This document shows, piece after piece, positions 2,746 through 61,409 of a stretch of 64,000 nucleotides of DNA. Each line of letters opens with the position of its first letter. Position 1 is the stretch's first letter. A program made the position numbers and the translations under genes. The DNA is from an uncultured Clostridia bacterium (GTDB lineage Bacteria; Bacillota; Clostridia; Tissierellales; Sedimentibacteraceae), in the NCBI GenBank assembly GCA_964371035.1, contig CAYJLG010000001.1, forward strand, positions 702 through 64,701, in the 5' to 3' direction. The notes under the pieces were generated by a model that ran no database searches, had not been told where the DNA came from, and saw only the letters and a list, made by a program, of their open reading frames with translations.

Positions 2746-4065
2746 ATGGCAAGACCTATAGTTACTATAGTCGGAAGACCAAATGTTGGAAAATCAACAT
2801 TGTTTAACAGATTGGCAGGAAAGAGAATAGCTATAACAGAAGATACACCAGGAGTTACGAGAGATAGAATTTATGCAGAATGTGAGTGGTTGGATAATTA
2901 TTATACACTTATTGATACAGGAGGAATTGAACCTAATACGACTGACACGATTTTTGCTCAAATGAGAAGACAAGCTGAAATAGCCATAGATATGGCAGAT
3001 GTCATAATCTTTATGGTAGATGGAAAAGAGGGCTTGACTGGTTCTGATTATGAAGTAGCACAAATGCTTAGAAAATCTAAAAAAGAAATTATTTTAGTTT
3101 GTAATAAAATCGATAAACACGTTAATGAAGAAAATATCTTTGAATTTTATAATTTAGGTATTGGAGATCCAATTGCAATTTCATCTTCTGAAGCATTAGG
3201 ACTTGGAGATTTACTTGATGTAATTATTTCTAAATTTGATGAAACTCATGACACAGAAGTTGAAGAGAATGTAACTAAGATTGCTGTTATAGGAAAACCT
3301 AATGCTGGCAAATCTTCTCTAATAAACAGATTAATAGGTCAAGAAAGAGTTATAGTTAGTGACATCCCAGGAACTACTAGGGATGCAATTGATACTGAAT
3401 TTGAAAGAGGCGAACAAAAGTATACATTAATTGATACTGCAGGGATAAGAAAAAAGAGTAAAATAGATGAAAACATTGAAAGATATAGTGTTATTCGTTC
3501 TTTTGCAGCAGTTGAAAGAGCGGATGTTTGCTTGCTTGTTATAGATGCGGCAGATGGAGTTACAGAGCAGGATGCAAGGATTGCAGGGTATGCTCATGAA
3601 AGTGGAAAGGCTATGATAATTATAGTCAATAAATGGGATTTGATTGAAAAAGATAATAGTGCTTTTAACAAATATATTGAAGAAGTTAGAAATAAACTTG
3701 CATACTTGACTTATGCACCAATATTAACGATGTCTGCGCTTACAGGACAAAGAGCAAATAAGGTATTAGATATGGTGGATGAGGTCATAGGATTTAGAAA
3801 TCTTAGAATTTCGACAGGTGTTCTAAATGATATAATTACTGAAGCAGTATTAATGAATCAACCTAGATCTGTAAAAGGAAAGAGGCTTAAAATTTTATAT
3901 GGAACACAAGTAAAAGTTGCTCCGCCAAAGTTTGTTGTTTTTTGTAATGATCACACTTTAGTACATTTTTCATATATCAGATACTTAGAAAACAAAATTA
4001 GAGAAAATTATGAATATAAAGGAAACCCTATAGTTATTGAATTTAAAAATAGGGGTGGTGAATAA
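2746..4065 (+). CDS. der: Ribosome-associated GTPase Der/EngA
   Basis: Two tandem G domains: [17 protein letters not shown] and [17 protein letters not shown], plus a KH-like C-terminus. Confidence 0.95.
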
Positions 4066-18604: not shown

Positions 18605-19648
18605 ATGAATATAAATGATGTTAAATTAACTGATTATTCAAAAACGGCAGGCTGAGCTGCCAAGATAGGTCCTGAGACCCTTGCACAAGTTTTGTGCAAA
18701 TTACCAAAATTTAATGATGAAAATTTATTAGTAGGGATTGAAACTTCTGATGATGCCGCAGTTTACAAAATTACAGATGAACTCGCGATGATACAAACTG
18801 TAGATTTTTTTACACCTGTAGTTGATGACCCGTATCTTTTTGGCCAGATTGCTGCAGCAAACTCACTTAGTGATGTGTATGCAATGGGTGGAGAACCCAA
18901 ATTAGCTTTAAATATTATCGGATTTCCTAACTGTCTTGATCCAGAAATTATGGGAGAAATATTAGCTGGTGGAGCTTCAAAAGTTATAGAAGCAGGCGCA
19001 ACTCTTGCAGGTGGACATTCTATTGAAGATGATGAACCTAAATATGGACTTTGTGTAACTGGTTTTGTAGATATTAAAAAAATACTTAAAAACTCAGGTG
19101 CTAAAGTGGGTGATATGTTAATATTAACAAAGCAAATTGGCTCAGGTGTTATTAATACAGCATCTAAGGCAAATATGGTTTCACAGGAATCTTATGACGA
19201 AGCTGTTGTTGTTATGACTTCATTAAATAAAAAAGCAAAAGAAGTTTTAGATAATTATGAGGTTAGTAGTTGTACAGACGTGACAGGTTTTGGGCTGCTT
19301 GGACATAGTGTTGAGATGGCAAAAGGGAGCAATGTTTCGTTTGAATTAAATGTTAACAGTGTGCCTTTAATAGCTAATGCATTAGATTATGCAGAAACTG
19401 GGCTAATACCAGCAGGTGCATACAAGAATGCAAATTATTTTAAAAATGAAGTCATGTTAGGTGATGTAGAAGACGCTTATATAGATTTGTTTTATGATCC
19501 TCAAACTTCAGGAGGTTTATTGATTAGTATCAGCGAAGAATTGGCTGAAAAATGTTTGAGAGATTTAGAAGCTGCAGGCATAGATACAAAATGCGCTATA
19601 GTTGGAAAAGTAATAGAGAAAAAAGACAAGTGGATATATTTAATTTAG
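18605..19648 (+). CDS. selD: Selenide, water dikinase (selenophosphate synthetase), selenocysteine-containing form
   Basis: The track ORF 18692..19648 is SelD-like. Reading in frame from the ATG at 18605 gives [32 protein letters not shown]. This is the conserved SelD N-terminal glycine-rich loop, where Cys or Sec sits (TGA at 18653..18655). Confidence 0.9.
18661..18699 (+). promoter_or_regulatory. Candidate bacterial SECIS hairpins downstream of the selD TGA
   Basis: CAAG-aua-GGUC-cuga-GACC-CUUG (18661..18683), overlapping by 3 nt the perfect 8-bp stem UUGCACAA-guu-UUGUGCAA (18681..18699), so the two cannot both form fully. Confidence 0.45.
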
Positions 19649-19660
19649 AGAGGTTTTGTG

Positions 19661-21073
19661 ATGAATAAGAACATATTTTTTAGGAACATTCCAAAAGTTG
19701 ATTTGCTTTTAGAAGAACCAGAATTAAAATTACTTATTGAAAATAACAATAGAGATCTTGTTGTAGATGTAGTTAGAGAAAAGATTGAAGAATTAAGGCA
19801 ATTTATTTTCGCAAGCAATGATGAAGAGGCTATCAATAAAAGATTAAATGATCTTATAGATGATATTTTATCAAAATTCAATAGAATAGTTAACTTTAAT
19901 ATGAGAAAAGTTATAAATGCAACAGGTACAATTCTTCATACAAATTTAGGTAGATCAGTAATTTCTGAGGAAATAGCAGAAGATATAAAAACTATAATTA
20001 CTGGCTATTCTAATTTAGAATACGATATAGAAAACGGCATGCGAGGCGAAAGATATTCGCATTTTGAAGATGTAGTTTGTAGAATTACAGGCGCGGAGGC
20101 TGCTATGGCTGTAAATAATAACGCAGCGGCAGTAATGCTTATTTTAAGTACTCTTGCTAGAAATAAAGAAGTAATAGTATCAAGAGGTGAGTTAGTTGAA
20201 ATTGGTGGGTCTTTTAGAGTTCCAGATGTAATGAGTCAGAGTGGCTCTATTCTAAAAGAAATAGGAACTACAAACAAGACGCATCTAGTTGATTATGAAA
20301 AAGCTATCACTGCAGAAACTGCTGCTTTATTGAAGGTGCATACTAGCAATTACCAGATAGTAGGATTTACAGAAGATGTTTCTATAAAGGATTTATCAGA
20401 ATTATCAAAAGAATATAAAATTCCTTTAATAGAAGATATAGGAAGCGGCGTCTTGATAGATTTGAGCAAATACGGGTTAAGTTATGAACCTACTGTTCAG
20501 CAATCTATTAAAAACGGTGCGGATGTAGTTTGCTTTAGTGGAGACAAACTGCTAGGAGGACCACAAGCTGGTATTATTGTTGGAAAAAAAGAATATATTG
20601 ACATGATGAAGAAAAATCCTTTGACTAGAGCTTTTAGAATAGATAAGTTTACAGTTGTAGCACTAGAAGCTATTTTTCATAAATATTTGGATGAAAAAAA
20701 AGCTGTAAATCATATACCAGTGTTAAAAATGATGACCAAAAATATTGAATTGATTGAATTAGCTGCGGAGTCGTTAAAAGAAAAAATAATGCCAGTTGCA
20801 GCTAAAATCAATGTTTCTATTGAAGATTGTTTATCTCAAATTGGTGGAGGCTCTTTACCTCTTGAAAGGATTAATAGTAAATGTATTTCTATTGTTCCAA
20901 AGTATATGAGTACTGCTTTGTTTGAAAAAAGGTTAAGAGAAGTCAATATTCCTGTAATTATACGTATTGCAGAAAATAAAGCTATATTTGATTTGAGAAC
21001 TATAGCTGATAATGAATTAGATATAGTTGCAAATGCGATAATAGAAGTTTTTTCAAAGCCTATTAACGATTAA
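19661..21073 (+). CDS. selA: L-seryl-tRNA(Sec) selenium transferase
   Basis: About 470 aa. PLP-lysine context FSGDKLLGGPQAG. Sits between selD and selB. Confidence 0.9.
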   Translation: MNKNIFFRNIPKVDLLLEEPELKLLIENNNRDLVVDVVREKIEELRQFIFASNDEEAINKRLNDLIDDILSKFNRIVNFNMRKVINATGTILHTNLGRSVISEEIAEDIKTIITGYSNLEYDIENGMRGERYSHFEDVVCRITGAEAAMAVNNNAAAVMLILSTLARNKEVIVSRGELVEIGGSFRVPDVMSQSGSILKEIGTTNKTHLVDYEKAITAETAALLKVHTSNYQIVGFTEDVSIKDLSELSKEYKIPLIEDIGSGVLIDLSKYGLSYEPTVQQSIKNGADVVCFSGDKLLGGPQAGIIVGKKEYIDMMKKNPLTRAFRIDKFTVVALEAIFHKYLDEKKAVNHIPVLKMMTKNIELIELAAESLKEKIMPVAAKINVSIEDCLSQIGGGSLPLERINSKCISIVPKYMSTALFEKRLREVNIPVIIRIAENKAIFDLRTIADNELDIVANAIIEVFSKPIND

Positions 21074-31674: not shown

Positions 31675-32003
31675 AGAGTAAATCATACAATCGCGTGCAT
31701 TGCACGAGGAAAGTCCGGGCTCCATAGAGCGAGGGTGCCGGTTAATAACCGGTGAGGGTGACCTTAAGGAAAGTGCAACAGAAAATTACCGCCTGTAAAG
31801 GTAAGGGTGAAAAGGTGAGGTAAGAGCTCACCGGCGATTAGGCGACTAATCGGCCGTGTAAACCCCACCCGGAGCAAAACCAAATTAGGATTTAGAGTGG
31901 CTGCTCGTCACAATCCGGTAGGTAGGTTGCTTGAGCTTGTTGGTAACGATAAGCCTAGATAGATGATTGTTTAGTACAGAACCCGGCTTATAGATCTACT
32001 CTT
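31675..32003 (+). ncRNA. rnpB: RNase P RNA (bacterial; probably type B as in Firmicutes)
   Basis: Universally conserved GAGGAAAGUCCGGGC near the 5' end and ACAGAACCCGGCUUA near the 3' end. P1 pairing AGAGUA...UACUCU. GC-rich relative to its surroundings. Confidence 0.9.
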
Positions 32004-32067
32004 TTTTTATTTTCATTATTTTTTGTTGAATTTATAGTATGTAGAGTATATTTTGAAAGGTGATGTT

Positions 32068-47852: not shown

Positions 47853-48263
47853 TTAAGCTAATTTTTCACCATGTGTTGTACAAGCTGCTTTTGCATCATC
47901 ATCTGGGGATTCGTTAGCCATATACGTATCTAATGTCTTAGCTGTAGTTTCATCTTCCCAGTTTCTCATCCATTCTCCGTCTCCCCAACCATATGAGCCA
48001 AATAAAAGTACATTTTTATCGGCAAGACAATCTTTCACGTCATCCCACATAGGTTGAAACTCAGATTCCTCTAATACTTCTGCTCCCATAGAAGGGCAAC
48101 CAAAAGCAATAGAATCATAGTTTGCTACCATATCTTTTGTAAAATTTGCTGAAGTCATAACGTCAACTTCTGCACCTTTAGATTTTGCGCCTTCAGCTAT
48201 ACAGTTTGCCATTACCTCTGTATTTCCAGTTCCACTCCAATAAACTACTGCTACTTTACTCAT
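47853..48263 (-). CDS. Short-chain flavodoxin
   Basis: VVYWSGTGNTE FMN-phosphate loop. 136 aa. Confidence 0.9.
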   Translation of the reverse strand: MSKVAVVYWSGTGNTEVMANCIAEGAKSKGAEVDVMTSANFTKDMVANYDSIAFGCPSMGAEVLEESEFQPMWDDVKDCLADKNVLLFGSYGWGDGEWMRNWEDETTAKTLDTYMANESPDDDAKAACTTHGEKLA

Positions 48264-48308
48264 AAAAAATTCTCCTTTATTATTTGATATTAATATTTGT
48301 TTAATATA

Positions 48309-48863
48309 TCAAGCAACTACAGTTAGTTGCAATATATCTCTACCTTCAAGCCATAATTTCTTATAAACTGCTTTGCACTTATCATACTTAGCAAATTTTA
48401 TTAATGCTTCTTCTTCGTTACCATATACTTTCCAGTATCTACATAAATTACAGTTTTGTCCTTTGTTACAAATAAAACCCTCTACATCCTCTGGTGGATA
48501 ACCTAAAAATAAACCTATTTCATGAGGAAATTCATCGTATGTATTAAGTCTCTCTAAAAGTTTTTTAATTGATAAATCTACGTTTAAATCTTTATAACCA
48601 TATGATGATAGTATTTTCTTTGCTTTTAAATTATTCATGTCATTTTTAAGCATAGCATCTCTATACAAATATATAAGCGCATTATTATGATCAGTTTTTA
48701 ACAATTTTAGTTTGATACCTCTAGATGCAAACTTATTATTCCACATTAAAATATTAAAATTTAAATTTTCTAAACTATTAAATTTTACAGTAAACAAATT
48801 TGCTGTTTTTAATGAAGATAAGGTAAGTGCACAGTGTTCTATCAATAATTTTTCGCTAATCAT
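48309..48863 (-). CDS. DUF3793-like protein
   Basis: FPHEIGLFLGYPPEDVEGFI and YWKVYG match my recollection of DUF3793. ATG at 48863 follows GGAGG. Confidence 0.5.
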   Translation of the reverse strand: MISEKLLIEHCALTLSSLKTANLFTVKFNSLENLNFNILMWNNKFASRGIKLKLLKTDHNNALIYLYRDAMLKNDMNNLKAKKILSSYGYKDLNVDLSIKKLLERLNTYDEFPHEIGLFLGYPPEDVEGFICNKGQNCNLCRYWKVYGNEEEALIKFAKYDKCKAVYKKLWLEGRDILQLTVVA

Positions 48864-49039
48864 AACAACCTCCAAAATAATATAAATCAACATGAAAATT
48901 AAACAAAATAAAATAGTAAAACGCTAGTTGTTGCAAGCTAACTTTAAATGCAAAAATTAGTTGCCTATAGACAACTACGATTAGCTAAAGCTAACTATAT
49001 ATACTATACAAAAAAATTATTGCTTTGTCAAGATGAAAA

Positions 49040-55277: not shown

Positions 55278-55901
55278 CTAATACTTTCTAATTACGCCTT
55301 TTACAACCCCAATTATTTCAACTTCTTTAAGCAAAATAGGTTCCAATGTACTGTTTTCAGGTTGCAATCTGATATGATCTTTTTCTTTATAAAAAGTTTT
55401 TACAGTTGCAGAATCTTCAATAAGAGCAACTACAATCTCAGCATTTCTAGCAGTGTTTTGTTTGTTCACTATAATATAATCATTATTTAATATTCCTGCT
55501 TCAATCATACTATCGCCTTTAACTTTTAGAATAAAAGATTCTGAATTTCCTATGAAATCGATAGGAATAGGCATTAAATCTTCGATATTTTCAACTGCCA
55601 ATATAGGTGAACCTGCGGCTACATTTCCTAAAACTGGTAGATGTGCAATTTCTTTTTTAGGTAAGTCAGCATAAGCATTGTCAATGTCGATGACTTCAAT
55701 TGCTCTCATTTTATTGTTACCTTTAACAATATATCCTTTTTTTTCAAGAGTATTCAAATGTGCATGAACTGAAGAAGTAGAGCTCAAACCTGTAGCTTTA
55801 CAGATTTCTCTAACCGATGGAGGATATCCTTTTTCAGATAATTCATTTTTAATGTAAGTTAAAACTTTAATTTGCATGTTACTTAATTCTTCATAAGCCA
55901 T
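55278..55901 (-). CDS. lexA: LexA repressor
   Basis: Winged-helix N-terminus, Ala-Gly cleavage site (VAAGSP), catalytic Ser (KGDSM) and a Lys near the C-terminus. Confidence 0.95.
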   Translation of the reverse strand: MAYEELSNMQIKVLTYIKNELSEKGYPPSVREICKATGLSSTSSVHAHLNTLEKKGYIVKGNNKMRAIEVIDIDNAYADLPKKEIAHLPVLGNVAAGSPILAVENIEDLMPIPIDFIGNSESFILKVKGDSMIEAGILNNDYIIVNKQNTARNAEIVVALIEDSATVKTFYKEKDHIRLQPENSTLEPILLKEVEIIGVVKGVIRKY

Positions 55902-56001
55902 AACAATACCTCCAATTAGTAAATTAATTTTATTAAGAGTAGTATAACATAATACAAATCAAAAAGCAAACATTTGTTTGGTTTGAAGTTGAAAAATAAT
56001 T

Positions 56002-56015
56002 CGTACAAAAGTTCG
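56002..56015. promoter_or_regulatory. Cheo (LexA) box, one mismatch
   Basis: CGTACAAAAGTTCG versus CGAAC-N4-GTTCG. Confidence 0.45.
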
Positions 56016-56024
56016 AAAAAAAAC

Positions 56025-56053
56025 TTGACAACGAACATTTGTTCTGTTATCAT
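56025..56053 (+). promoter_or_regulatory. Promoter of the yneA-like gene
   Basis: TTGACA, 17-nt spacer, TATCAT. The spacer is occupied by a Cheo box. Confidence 0.6.
56032..56045. promoter_or_regulatory. Cheo (LexA) box
   Basis: CGAACATTTGTTCT contains GAAC-N4-GTTC exactly. Confidence 0.7.
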
Positions 56054-56064
56054 ATATTTATAAC

Positions 56065-56404: not shown

Positions 56405-57391
56405 TTATTTATTGGTATCATCATCATCCATAAACGTACTCAATGGGTTGTTTTTTACTGCTTCTTTAAGTCGTTCATCGTTTATGTGTGTATATATTTG
56501 CGTAGTTGCAACACTTTCGTGCCCTAATATGTCTTGTAAAGCGACAATGTCCACATTACCGTGTTGGTACATTAAAGTTGCTGCGGTATGCCTTAGTTTA
56601 TGAGGTGAAAAATTACTACTACCTAATCCAGCTGCTACGAGCGATTTTTCTACTAAATGTTGAATTGCTCTTTGTGAAATCCTAGTTTTTCTATTGCTCA
56701 AAAACATAGCATTTTCATGACCATCTAAACCATCAGGCCTGATTTTAATATAATCACGTAATGAAGCAATGCACGCATCGTTTAAATAAATTGTACGCTC
56801 TTTATTTCCTTTCCCAATAACTGTAAGTGTTTCATCTTTATAATTGTTTAAATTAATACTTACTATTTCTGATAATCGAACACCACAATTTAAAAAAATC
56901 ATGATAATTGCAAAATCTCTTTCTTTGTTTTGGCCTTCAATCGACTTTAATAGATACTTAGATTGTTCTAAAGTGAGATGCACAGGTAGTCTTTTATTAG
57001 ACTTAGGTGACTCAAGCTTGATTGCAGGATCTTCTGCTATTAGCCCCATAGTAGAATATAAATATTTGTAAAAAGATTTTAAACAAGCAACTTTTCGCGC
57101 TTTAGTTCTATTTGAATTATTTCTGTCTTTATCAATAAATGCAATGAAAGCATGCAAATCTAACAAATTAACTTTCTTTATAATGCTTAAGTCAATTAAA
57201 AAAATATCAACATCTTCAAATGGAGTATCGCTCTTTACAAGCTTATATCTAAAACATAAAAATCTGTGAAAAGTTCTTAAATCTAAAAAATATTCTCTGA
57301 CAGTCCTTGGCGATTTTCCTCTTATAGAAACTAGATATTCTAAAAAATCACACATAGGGGAGGGTGCTATCTCAAAATAATTATATTCCAT
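56405..57391 (-). CDS. Tyrosine recombinase, XerC/XerD-like
   Basis: SAM-like N-terminal domain. Catalytic residues in GVRLSE (R), HKLRHTAAT (H-x-x-R) and LGHESVATTQIYTH (H, Y). Confidence 0.85.
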   Translation of the reverse strand: MEYNYFEIAPSPMCDFLEYLVSIRGKSPRTVREYFLDLRTFHRFLCFRYKLVKSDTPFEDVDIFLIDLSIIKKVNLLDLHAFIAFIDKDRNNSNRTKARKVACLKSFYKYLYSTMGLIAEDPAIKLESPKSNKRLPVHLTLEQSKYLLKSIEGQNKERDFAIIMIFLNCGVRLSEIVSINLNNYKDETLTVIGKGNKERTIYLNDACIASLRDYIKIRPDGLDGHENAMFLSNRKTRISQRAIQHLVEKSLVAAGLGSSNFSPHKLRHTAATLMYQHGNVDIVALQDILGHESVATTQIYTHINDERLKEAVKNNPLSTFMDDDDTNK

Positions 57392-59299: not shown

Positions 59300-59410
59300 T
59301 TTTACCTCACTTTTTGATTTAAAATATAATTATTTAATATGTTATTTCTTCAAATAAATTATAACATTTTTAAATATATGTCGCAAGTGTTTGTTGTTTT
59401 ATAATTTAAT

Positions 59411-59450
59411 AAAAAAAAATCGTTATTAAATATTATTTAACGATTTTTTT
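59411..59450. terminator. Terminator after the thioredoxin-like gene
   Basis: ATCGTTA-N13-TAACGAT flanked by long A- and T-runs. Confidence 0.6.
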
Positions 59451-59463
59451 ATCTATTTTATTG

Positions 59464-59805
59464 TTAGATGTTATTTTGAATTAATGATTTTGCCTCTTCA
59501 ACACTAATTAACTTACCATAAGATACTACTTTATTAGCTATAACTAAAGCTGGAGTTTGCATTATTCCATACTTTGCAATTTCTGCCATATCTCCAATAT
59601 TTATAACTTCTTCAGATATTCCTAATTCAGACACTGCAATTTTTACATTTTCAAAAGTTTGCGAACTTTTTTTACAACAAGCTCCTAAAACAATAAATTT
59701 CGATGTTTCACTTGATGTTTCTTTCTCTGGTGAACACGCACCGCTAGCACAGCCTCAAGTATTTGAAGCTTTTACTTCTTTTTTACCAAATTTAAATAAT
59801 CCCAT
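59464..59805 (-). CDS. Thioredoxin_3 (redox-active disulfide protein 2)-like protein with in-frame TGA: candidate selenoprotein
   Basis: Absent from the ORF track. AAAGGAGA RBS, 5-nt spacer, then ATG at 59805. Translation: MGLFKFGKKEVKASNT-TGA(59755..59757)-GCASGACSPEKETSSETSKFIVLGACCKKSSQTFENVKIAVSELGISEEVINIGDMAEIAKYGIMQTPALVIANKVVSYGKLISVEEAKSLIQNNI-stop. 114 codons, with no in-frame ATG/GTG/TTG plus RBS after the TGA. Confidence 0.7.
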
Positions 59806-59849
59806 TTTAATTCTCCTTTAAATTTCTAAATTTTTCTATAAATTAAGTT

Positions 59850-60863
59850 TTATATTATGAGTGGTTGTAGTGCATTGAACACATATCCTACACTTACAAT
59901 ACCAATGAAACAAATTATTATGAATAGCGCTAAAAGTTTAGGTTTAATAGCTTTTCTTAACATTATCATAGATGGTAAACTAAGCGCTGTAACAGCCATC
60001 ATAAATGATAATATAGTACCTAGCTGTGCACCTTTAATTAACAAGGCTTCTGCTATAGGTATAGTTCCAAAAATATCAGCATACATAGGTATGCCTACTA
60101 TAGTCGCGAGTATAACTCCAAATGGATTGTTGCTACCTAAAGCTGCTTCTACCCATGACTGCGGAATCCAGTTATGAATAATAGCACCAATACCTACACC
60201 TACTAAGATATATGGAAAAACTTTTTTAAATGTTTCTACGACTTGATCTTTAGAATAGACTAATCTATCTTTTACTGTCAATTCTGGTGATTCTAGATCG
60301 ACGCTACTAGCAGATAATATAAATTCTTCAACATGCTTTTGCATCTTTAATTTTTCTATGATCATTCCACCTATTATTGCTACTATTAATCCAAATATTA
60401 CGTATAAAACAGCTACTTTAGTCCCAAATATACTCATTAATAATACTAAACTTCCTAAATCAACCATAGGAGATGATATTAAAAATGAAAAAGTAACCCC
60501 TATCGGTAAACCTGCACCAGTAAATCCAATAAATAATGGTATCGAAGAGCAAGAGCAAAACGGTGTTACAGTTCCTAACAATGCTCCCATTGCATTAGCA
60601 CCCAAGCCTTTAAATCTACCTAATATTTTTTTGCTTCTTTCAGGTGGGAAAAAACTTTGAATATACGAAATTATAAAAATCAAACTGCAAAGTAAAACTA
60701 CAATTTTTATAACATCATAGAAAAAAAACTGAATACTTCCACCTAATCTTTCTGTCACATCTAATCCTAGTGCTGTAAGTATATCGCCTACTAATTGATT
60801 TAACCACTTCATGCCTAGTATTTGATCTTGAAAAAATGACCATCCATTGCTTAAAATTTCCAT
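59850..60863 (-). CDS. ArsP_1/DUF318 (COG0701) family permease
   Basis: Polytopic membrane protein with the characteristic VTPFCSCSSIP motif. Usually paired with a thioredoxin_3 gene. Confidence 0.8.
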   Translation of the reverse strand: MEILSNGWSFFQDQILGMKWLNQLVGDILTALGLDVTERLGGSIQFFFYDVIKIVVLLCSLIFIISYIQSFFPPERSKKILGRFKGLGANAMGALLGTVTPFCSCSSIPLFIGFTGAGLPIGVTFSFLISSPMVDLGSLVLLMSIFGTKVAVLYVIFGLIVAIIGGMIIEKLKMQKHVEEFILSASSVDLESPELTVKDRLVYSKDQVVETFKKVFPYILVGVGIGAIIHNWIPQSWVEAALGSNNPFGVILATIVGIPMYADIFGTIPIAEALLIKGAQLGTILSFMMAVTALSLPSMIMLRKAIKPKLLALFIIICFIGIVSVGYVFNALQPLII

Positions 60864-60888: not shown

Positions 60889-60908
60889 ACATAGACAACT
60901 ATCTATGT
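60889..60908. promoter_or_regulatory. Inverted-repeat operator candidate in the permease 5' leader
   Basis: ACATAGA-N6-TCTATGT. The related TATCTATGTG also occurs, inverted, at 60962..60971 inside the promoter spacer. Confidence 0.45.
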
Positions 60909-60950: not shown

Positions 60951-60979
60951 ATTATATACATCACATAGATAATTGTCAA
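60951..60979 (-). promoter_or_regulatory. Consensus sigma-A promoter of the permease/thioredoxin-like operon
   Basis: On the minus strand: TTGACA, 17-nt spacer, TATAAT. Confidence 0.65.
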
Positions 60980-61019
60980 TATGTTTTTTAAAAAAAGTTT
61001 TACTAAATTTTTATTTTGG

Positions 61020-61372
61020 TTACTATTCACAGTCGATTTCTGGTGTAAATAAGGGAAAAATAATAAAATATGGAAGCCTTATGGAGATTGGATTAAGTTG
61101 TGTGAAGTTTTATGAGCGTTTTAGTCATCTTTGGCTTAGCCCTAAAAATATACTGCGTTATGACTTTGCGAATAAAACTACTCATGCCCTAACCCCATTT
61201 TCTAAATGAAAATGGCGGTAGGTCACATGCATGGAGAACCAAATCTTTGTGAGTTTAACGAGCAAAAAGATTTGATGTTCTCTTCTGTGCCAGACAACTT
61301 CCCAATTGGAGTACCAGCGCGACAGATTTTATTATTTTTTCATGTTGACATACATTCAACTGTGAATTATAA
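61020..61372. repeat. Long copy (353 bp) of the TIR repeat family with non-coding cargo
   Basis: TTACTATTCACAGTCGAT ... TTCAACTGTGAATTATAA. The arms are homologous to 53791..53918. The interior contains several strong hairpins and no convincing ORF. Confidence 0.65.
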
Positions 61373-61409
61373 AAAGCTATTAAATTATAGTTTCATAATT
61401 TAATAGCTT
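61368..61409 (-). terminator. rny terminator
   Basis: 14-bp stem AAGCTATTAAATTA / TAATTTAATAGCTT followed by TTTTATA on the minus strand. Confidence 0.7.

Follow-up and report, generated by a model that had tools for sequence, protein, structure and literature searches.

A candidate selenoprotein gene of the Thioredoxin_3 family behind an ArsP_1 permease in a Sedimentibacter-like bacterium

We analyzed a stretch of 64,000 nucleotides (hereafter the window) from an uncultured Clostridia bacterium and concentrated on a small minus-strand gene at 59464..59805. The gene encodes a thioredoxin-like protein with a Cys-rich N-terminal tail, and one TGA stands in frame in this tail. An ArsP_1-family permease gene lies directly upstream and purB lies downstream. 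The comparisons described below suggest that the locus is probably a functional gene for a selenoprotein of about 12 kDa in the Thioredoxin_3/MTH895-ArsE family, with selenocysteine (Sec) inserted at the TGA. The elements of the gene are as follows.

59464..59805, minus strand: candidate selenoprotein coding sequence, 113 codons including the TGA as codon 17, then TAA
Within 59464..59805, minus strand: N-terminal tail MGLFKFGKKEVKASNT-U-GCASGAC..., then the Thioredoxin_3 domain with CC-KK-S
59812..59819, minus strand: ribosome-binding site (RBS) AAAGGAGA, 6 nucleotides (nt) before the ATG
59727..59747, minus strand: hairpin resembling a selenocysteine insertion sequence (SECIS), upper stem GGUG/CACC (59742..59739 and 59732..59729), loop CGUGUU

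Reading frame, thioredoxin-like domain and Cys-rich tail

The ATG at 59805..59803 opens a run of 16 sense codons, translated on the minus strand as MGLFKFGKKEVKASNT. The TGA (59757..59755) is codon 17, and 96 further sense codons lead to a TAA at 59466..59464. A scan of the minus-strand frame found no ATG, GTG or TTG between the TGA and a GTG at 59634, and a start at this GTG would remove strand 1 and the CC site of the thioredoxin-like domain. In the public protein collection, the sole trace of the gene was a 56-amino acid fragment (P0091) called from this same GTG. The gene is therefore effectively unannotated. As the RBS is strong and the peptide encoded ahead of the TGA is conserved, translation is expected to begin at ATG 59805. 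A preliminary description of the window had placed this frame between the permease and purB, with an RBS, an ATG, a TGA at codon 17 and no further stop, and all of these points were confirmed.

When the TGA was read as a residue, residues 38-109 matched the Pfam family Thioredoxin_3 (PF13192; E = 5.1e-19, 68.5 bits against a cutoff of 24.8). The protein also scored 69.6 bits against the NCBIfam model TIGR00412, 'MTH895/ArsE family thioredoxin-like protein' (cutoff 62). The protein keeps every one of the 16 positions that are invariant in the family alignment. The canonical CxxC position reads CC-KK-S rather than CxxC. Both Cys residues of the pair (C43 and C44) are invariant across an alignment of 52 sequences, in which Ser at the resolving position is nearly invariant (at least 90%). 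The CANC of MTH895 aligns with the CKKS of the window protein and the extra Cys precedes it. The protein has a vicinal CC pair just before helix 1, without a resolving Cys. Two earlier statements, that a clear thioredoxin_3 fold follows the TGA and that its CxxC reads CKKS (CxxS), were thereby borne out.

The structure of MTH895 (1ILO) was the sole sequence match in the PDB (E = 9e-8). A structure model was available through AlphaFold2 for a Cys homologue (P0005) that is 66% identical to the window protein. Its domain is a confident thioredoxin fold (predicted local distance difference test, pLDDT, 77-90), and residues 5-27 of its tail are predicted to be disordered (pLDDT <50), which makes this part of the model uninformative. 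The best fold match of this model in the PDB was again 1ILO, with a template modelling (TM) score of 0.77 normalized to the target.

A protein search returned 87 relatives, most of which spanned the whole query including the N-terminal extension. They share a common layout: M-G-L-F-x-F-G-K-K-x-E, a variable linker, a t-C-x-C-G-G-x-C cluster and then the domain. The 16 codons ahead of the TGA encode this conserved N-terminus (MGLFKFGKK in the window). Cys residues of the tail were counted over 74 long-form homologues. The first Cys of the cluster, which is the column of the window TGA, is Cys in 66 of them; the second is Cys in 68 and the third in 59. Where the family has CxCGGxC, the tail in the window reads U-G-C-x4-C. 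The preliminary description had placed Cys-rich stretches of relatives at this site and proposed a search for Cys opposite the TGA. The stretches are real and the Cys is there, aligned with the TGA at the first position of the cluster. On this alignment, the TGA column is a classical Sec/Cys pair. There are 63 single-base changes able to create a stop in the gene, and three of them fall on tail Cys codons; a random nonsense hit at such a codon would be an event of about 5%.

Conservation of the N-terminal peptide MGLF(G/N)FGKKKE extends over both active-site subfamilies and many lineages of Bacillota and Spirochaetota (141 related loci, L001-L141). It is only a guess that this peptide docks to the permease or to the membrane. 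Two loci (L022 and L023) carry long tandem Cys-rich repeats (EETSCCSSAQ) ahead of the domain.

Natural short forms of the CC-KK-S subfamily, without the N-terminal tail, were found at seven loci (L025, L026, L028, L032, L042, L081 and L082). They begin about 20 nt after the stop codon of the permease, and two short database matches (P0044 and P0061) were genuine short forms of this kind, starting about 20 nt past the permease. The domain can therefore function without the Cys/Sec cluster. According to the preliminary description, orthologues that start downstream of the TGA position with their own RBS would speak against Sec. Such orthologues do occur (L081, L082, L025 and L028). They leave the Sec reading standing because the window gene has no such downstream start.

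The Cys cluster accompanies both types of active site. Tails with at least two Cys or Sec residues were found in 19 of 37 CCxxS proteins and in 54 of 77 xCxxC proteins, and tails without any Cys in 17 and 21 of them, respectively. Therefore, the tail is best regarded as an accessory module of the permease-linked family and not as a specific substitute for a lost Cys. This bears on a different view of the mechanism, which leaves the gene call untouched: the tail Sec might be the resolving or attacking partner of the monothiol CxxS, and the protein a thiol-selenol oxidoreductase acting, for example, on a substrate or on the permease. The nearly invariant Ser at the resolving position of CKKS would fit such a role, and the tail of the P0005 model is flexible enough to reach the site. 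Selenenylsulfide chemistry is also the commonest role of Sec in thioredoxin-fold proteins. However, the cluster is no commoner with CCxxS than with xCxxC, and the 17 CCxxS proteins without tail Cys indicate that the tail is not an obligatory replacement. The vicinal CC pair, the invariant CSC of the permease and the ArsR-type regulator at most loci (see below) favour ligand binding instead. A resolving role for a Sec or Cys of the extension, as suggested in the preliminary description, was thus not specifically supported, and we consider the oxidoreductase possible but doubtful.

Proposed decoding of the in-frame UGA

Three genes for Sec synthesis and insertion were found in the same window, as had been claimed before. 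All three score far above the curated cutoffs of their TIGR profiles. These genes, the hairpin of selD and one further RNA gene are listed here.

18605..19648, plus strand: selD, TIGR00476 371.2 bits, itself a selenoprotein gene
19658..21073, plus strand: selA, L-seryl-tRNA(Sec) selenium transferase, TIGR00474 611.7 bits
21122..23029, plus strand: selB, Sec-specific elongation factor, TIGR00475 387.7 bits, model positions 1-579 of 581
18661..18683, plus strand: SECIS hairpin of selD, CAAG-[AUA]-GGUC-cuga-GACC-CUUG
31675..32006, plus strand: bacterial RNase P RNA class A, Rfam RF00010, 293.6 bits, the only Rfam match above the gathering threshold in the window

The true start of selD is ATG 18605, and its TGA (18653..18655) is codon 17, at the canonical Sec site (SKTAG-U-AAKIG). 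A mechanical open reading frame (ORF) call starts selD at TTG 18692 and loses this N-terminus. That the candidate Sec codon of the thioredoxin-like gene also has position 17 is a coincidence. A scan of the window for frames interrupted by TGA revealed selD as the sole other selenoprotein gene. Two further candidates (47853..48923 and 55278..56057) were rejected, as they were adjacent genes that happened to share a frame. TGA is the ordinary stop of three of the 48 long ORFs or genes in the window and the genes are not fragmented, which rules out a reassigned genetic code.

SelB and tRNA-Sec would read the UGA at codon 17 as Sec, aided by a minimal stem-loop 12 nt downstream. The hairpin GGUG-cguguu-CACC had been described at 59742..59729, beginning 12 nt after the UGA, and we found it exactly there, with a G at the second position of the loop. 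By eye, the stem can be continued through a 3-nt 5' bulge (AGC) into a lower stem of 2 bp (CU/AG), neither of which the minimum free energy (MFE) fold contains. The element of selD and the hairpin of the thioredoxin-like gene share the UGA, the 12-nt spacing and a 4-bp G+C-rich upper stem that begins with GG (GGUC/GACC in selD, GGUG/CACC in the thioredoxin-like gene). The selD fold adds a 3-nt 5' bulge (AUA) and a lower stem.

Hairpins of this kind are rare after codons in this genome, which has a G+C content of 30%. We surveyed 4-bp G+C-rich hairpins at the 12-nt spacing under a narrow and a broad definition. In the genes of the window, they followed 20 of 16,612 codons (narrow) or 1.3% of codons (broad). 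After the Cys codons of homologue tails, the frequencies were 0.9% and 8.8%, respectively. These values correspond roughly to P = 0.01-0.09, which is suggestive. The thermodynamic stability of the hairpin was not significant against either shuffled sequences or the homologue sites, and geometry and frequency were used instead. On these grounds, the hairpin is compatible with a SECIS element and does not amount to proof of one.

In-frame reading was extended to 139 related loci (80 in reference genomes, 59 in metagenomes), and only one other locus (L005) had a TGA inside the gene.

Contig CAYIYM010000013.1 (uncultured Lachnospiraceae), 3002..3355, TGA at 3079..3081: second candidate Sec form

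This gene reads ...GAC-E-U-GGQC..., so that its TGA takes the place of the second cluster Cys (CxU), the neighbour of the Cys aligned with the window TGA. Its permease lies immediately upstream and its RBS is AAAAGGAGA. The stem-loop after its UGA, (C)GAUAUC-GGU-GAUAUC(G), has a free energy of -10.9 kcal/mol (z = -2.6 against shuffles) and is the most stable among nine homologues with near-identical peptides. Tail Cys codons account for 3 of the 53 possible single-substitution stops in L005. The protein has no counterpart among the family matches in the public protein set searched. Another apparent Sec form (P0211), the sole truncated match in a search with the 56-amino acid fragment, was merely cut by the end of its contig.

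An untracked Thioredoxin_3 gene with a candidate Sec codon in a Cys-rich extension, as first proposed, agreed with every comparative test that we ran. Several points nevertheless weigh against its being a functional selenoprotein gene. The Sec residue in the product, the substrate and its hand-off are inferred. A single third-position substitution (TGT or TGC to TGA) would suffice to produce the window gene from a Cys form, and a recent nonsense mutation would look identical. Over 43 nt, the hairpin has an MFE of -6.4 kcal/mol (z = +0.9 relative to shuffled sequences), and among the corresponding sites that follow Cys codons in homologues it ranks at the 43rd percentile. It had been called weak as a SECIS, and it is indeed no more stable than shuffled sequence. 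The narrow P value is optimistic because the hairpin definitions were set after both hairpins were known. The closest relatives (84% identity in PurB) lack the permease and the thioredoxin-like gene, and there is no orthologue to show conservation of the TGA. Sec forms are rare, being found at 2 of about 140 loci. No tRNA-Sec was found in the window by ARAGORN or Rfam; ARAGORN found no tRNA genes there at all, and the window is part of a contig of 203,666 bp.

Several of these points would fit a recent pseudogene, or an assembly or consensus error, in which TGT or TGC became TGA and translation stops after 16 residues. As described below, the gene belongs to an accessory cassette that is absent from the nearest relatives and has lost the usual ArsR gene. 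Therefore, relaxed selection is conceivable. The source genome also appears to be poorly sampled, as every protein looked up was a singleton cluster. At three loci (L051, L133 and L139), the thioredoxin-like frame breaks off a few codons into the domain, probably through frameshifts or errors of assembly. Damaged copies of the family therefore do exist in public assemblies. However, a nonsense mutation would have struck one of the few tail Cys codons by chance, and the same coincidence would be needed independently in L005. The RBS, the start, the N-terminus, the invariant residues of the domain, the terminator and the permease are all intact. The G+C-rich hairpin has the same 12-nt spacing as that of the organism's own selD. 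The organism uses Sec, as seen from selA, selB and the Sec-containing selD, and UxC and CxU are the very motifs in which Sec is known from this family. A pseudogene or an error thus seems unlikely to us.

Low-level read-through of the UGA by a near-cognate Cys or Trp tRNA, with the hairpin irrelevant, would suit a minimal SECIS-like element and the leakiest stop codon in bacteria, but it is highly improbable, as selA, selB, selD and a selD-like hairpin make Sec decoding the simpler reading, no sequence feature specifically favours suppression and TGA serves as an ordinary stop in the window.

The permease, a possible function and related systems

The permease and the thioredoxin-like gene form one unit, with the following features.

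59850..60863, minus strand: ArsP_1-family permease, 337 amino acids, Pfam PF03773 E = 5.2e-66, TPF-CSC-S motif
60951..60979, minus strand: promoter-like site TTGACA, 17 nt, TATAAT (12 of 12 consensus positions), downstream of the rny terminator and upstream of the permease start
60889..60908, between this promoter and the permease start: inverted repeat ACATAGA-n6-TCTATGT, the core of a larger inverted repeat
59413..59450, minus strand: terminator-like hairpin with 13-nt perfect arms and a T run, at the end of the permease-thioredoxin unit
59386..59358, minus strand: promoter-like site belonging to purB
61374..61409: inverted repeat of the rny terminator, the upstream border of the cassette segment

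Most related loci share the pairing with the permease. A homologous permease was found on the same strand in 128 of 140 related loci, and in 108 of them it was immediately upstream. The CSC of the TPF-CSC-S motif was present in 120 of 120 motif matches, counted over the related loci and the window. An ArsR-type regulator was found in 113 of 141 related loci. The ArsR proteins of L081 and L082, the two that were examined, carry an EKCAC (CxC) motif. Some related loci add a gene of the low-molecular-weight protein tyrosine phosphatase type (Pfam LMWPc), which may encode an ArsC-type arsenate reductase. No ArsR-type gene was found anywhere in the window, so the arrangement of an ArsR-ArsP-ArsE operon is incomplete there. 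Expression of the cassette may be constitutive or depend on a regulator encoded elsewhere, and the inverted repeat at 60889..60908 is a candidate operator for a trans-acting repressor.

We propose the following mechanism. The permease and the thioredoxin-like gene would be co-transcribed from the consensus promoter as a self-contained two-gene cassette, and the thioredoxin-like protein would be the cytoplasmic partner of the permease. The Sec and Cys residues of the tail, together with the vicinal CC pair, might capture a thiophilic substrate, either an As(III)-type metalloid or a soft metal. The substrate might then be passed by ligand exchange to the invariant CSC of the permease, as ArsD serves ArsA. 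Compared with Cys, Sec would lower the pKa of the tail and raise its affinity or reactivity. As an alternative chemistry, a selenenylsulfide redox relay might operate between the tail and the CC site. The idea of a metal(loid) carrier was drawn from the vicinal CC without CxxC, the flexible Cys-rich tail, the CxC of the permease and the ArsR-type regulator at most loci. The candidate substrates are As(III) or an organoarsenical on the one side and Cu, Zn or Hg on the other.

A more specific version seems rather unlikely to us, though we put it forward as a speculation: Sec might be a high-affinity ligand and not a redox catalyst, placed in a disordered 'fishing-line' tail that passes the metal(loid) to the CSC of the permease. 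If true, the protein would be a chaperone similar to ArsD, equipped with Sec and serving a secondary transporter. The CxC, UxC or CxU of the tail, the CxC of the permease and the usual CxC of ArsR would then form one ligand-exchange relay.

Selenoproteins of this kind have been described before. PF13192 proteins having a short N-terminal extension with conserved Cys or Sec form a selenoprotein family of Brachyspira (Santesmasses, Mariotti and Guigo 2017, PMC5330540). Its Cys homologues carry the annotation 'Redox-active disulfide protein 2', and CxxC is missing from one of the Sec forms. Two forms are tabulated in a 2026 review (PMC13188914): Sec.1 with CxU (WP_232817751.1) and Sec.2 with UxC (WP_218069652.1). 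As the Thioredoxin_3 selenoprotein family is already published, the window gene adds a member to it and opens no new category; a selenoprotein specialist would expect such a member.

The window protein resembles Sec.1 and Sec.2 in being a small PF13192 protein with a short N-terminal extension that contains Cys or Sec. Its U-G-C is of the UxC type and the C-E-U of L005 is of the CxU type. One published form lacks CxxC as well, and annotation had also overlooked or truncated the published genes. Our assignment of the window gene to this family is based on architecture and motif, and the equivalence of the Sec column on the tabulated motifs only. There are also differences. Brachyspira is a spirochaete, whereas the host of the window is a Sedimentibacter-like member of Bacillota. 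Brachyspira has three clustered paralogues (one Cys and two Sec forms), whereas the window has a single copy between the permease and purB, behind an ArsP_1 permease. The SECIS elements of Brachyspira are called 'good' candidates there, whereas the hairpin in the window is minimal.

The window protein also belongs with MTH895/ArsE (TIGR00412): it exceeds the cutoff of the model, and 1ILO is the best PDB match in sequence and, for the model of P0005, in fold. An ArsR-type regulator and an ArsP_1 permease are the usual context, seen in most of the related loci. A PF13192 partner of ArsP has been named 'ArsE' and described as an organoarsenical resistance protein (preprint 10.1101/2022.10.17.512643). 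Unlike MTH895, which has CxxC, the window protein has CC-KK-S and a 37-residue N-terminal tail with the Cys/Sec cluster, and neither an ArsR nor an ArsC gene lies nearby in the window.

ArsD (3MWH, 3KGK) also has a thioredoxin-like fold without CxxC, carries a vicinal Cys pair before helix 1 (MCCSTGVC) and serves an efflux system. We checked MCCSTGVC against residues 1-109 in the PDB and confirmed it. ArsD probably also has a flexible tail rich in Cys (CCGGNTSCC), in a segment that the PDB constructs lack. ArsD was among the fold matches (3kgk_B, E = 0.036, TM score 0.47-0.52), and sequence homology was rejected at an hhalign probability of 3%. As the fold match is weak and sequence homology is lacking, the likeness is a functional analogy only. 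The partner of ArsD is the ArsA ATPase and not an ArsP_1 permease. We know of no Sec forms of ArsD.

The SAO locus combines a thioredoxin-like selenoprotein, SaoT (NF040730), with an efflux transporter, SaoE (NF040736), and its Sec has been argued to be a heavy metal or metalloid ligand and not a catalyst (Haft 2022, preprint 10.1101/2022.07.06.499078). For the SO_0444 Cu/Zn efflux transporters (NF033936), the 2026 review lists a Sec form with UxC (PMC13188914). As at the SAO locus, the window has a thioredoxin-fold protein with Sec or 'overloaded' Cys motifs beside a transporter. The permease is distantly similar to both transporters and far below their cutoffs, with 110.6 bits against SaoE (cutoff 325) and 99.9 bits against SO_0444 (cutoff 300). 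Its CSC resembles the UxC of SO_0444 as a motif only. SaoT is MJ0307-like with Sec inside the CxxC, whereas the Sec of the window protein would be in the tail. The window protein had no match to NF040730 among its NCBIfam matches at E up to 0.01, and none of the other SAO genes accompanies the window gene.

If the Sec reading is true, Thioredoxin_3 selenoproteins extend from Brachyspira into Bacillota, that is, into a Sedimentibacter-like organism and a Lachnospiraceae metagenome-assembled genome (MAG), L005. The gene for the protein with the Sec/Cys-rich tail nearly always follows an ArsP_1 permease gene directly, and an ArsR-type repressor usually governs them. We found no mention of this linkage in the available part of the 2017 family description (PMC5330540). 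The linkage suggests that proteins of this selenoprotein family capture a metal(loid) and hand it on, a function that can be tested, and it would add to the view, argued recently, that Sec at some bacterial sites binds metal instead of acting as a catalyst. The added value is modest and lies in the host range (Bacillota), the tight linkage with the permease and the testable function. Both the thioredoxin-like gene and selD would need a Sec-aware correction of their annotation.

Extent and origin of the cassette

The best named relatives of the window PurB are from Sedimentibacter (up to 79% identity), and its closest relatives are 84% identical. In the latter (L144-L146), purB follows rny directly with a gap of 152 nt and no cassette. 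Therefore, the segment of about 1.95 kb between the rny terminator and the terminator-like hairpin at 59413..59450 is regarded as an inserted or accessory cassette. It contains the promoter, the 7-6-7 inverted repeat, the permease and the thioredoxin-like gene. The permease is 60-79% identical to permeases of taxonomically scattered MAGs, which suggests that the cassette may have moved horizontally. No mobility gene or flanking repeat was identified for the cassette, and no search aimed at them was made.

A XerC/D-like tyrosine recombinase gene is present at 56405..57391 (minus strand), downstream of purB. It is syntenic in related genomes (L142, L145 and L146) and is therefore not linked to the insertion of the cassette.

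A spacer of about 400 nt (60980..61373) separates the rny terminator from the cassette promoter. Two short plus-strand ORFs (60973..61209 and 61206..61403) lie there in different frames, and neither had a Pfam match. The spacer also contains further inverted repeats at 61185..61225 and 61240..61274, and it may be a gene remnant or an insertion scar.

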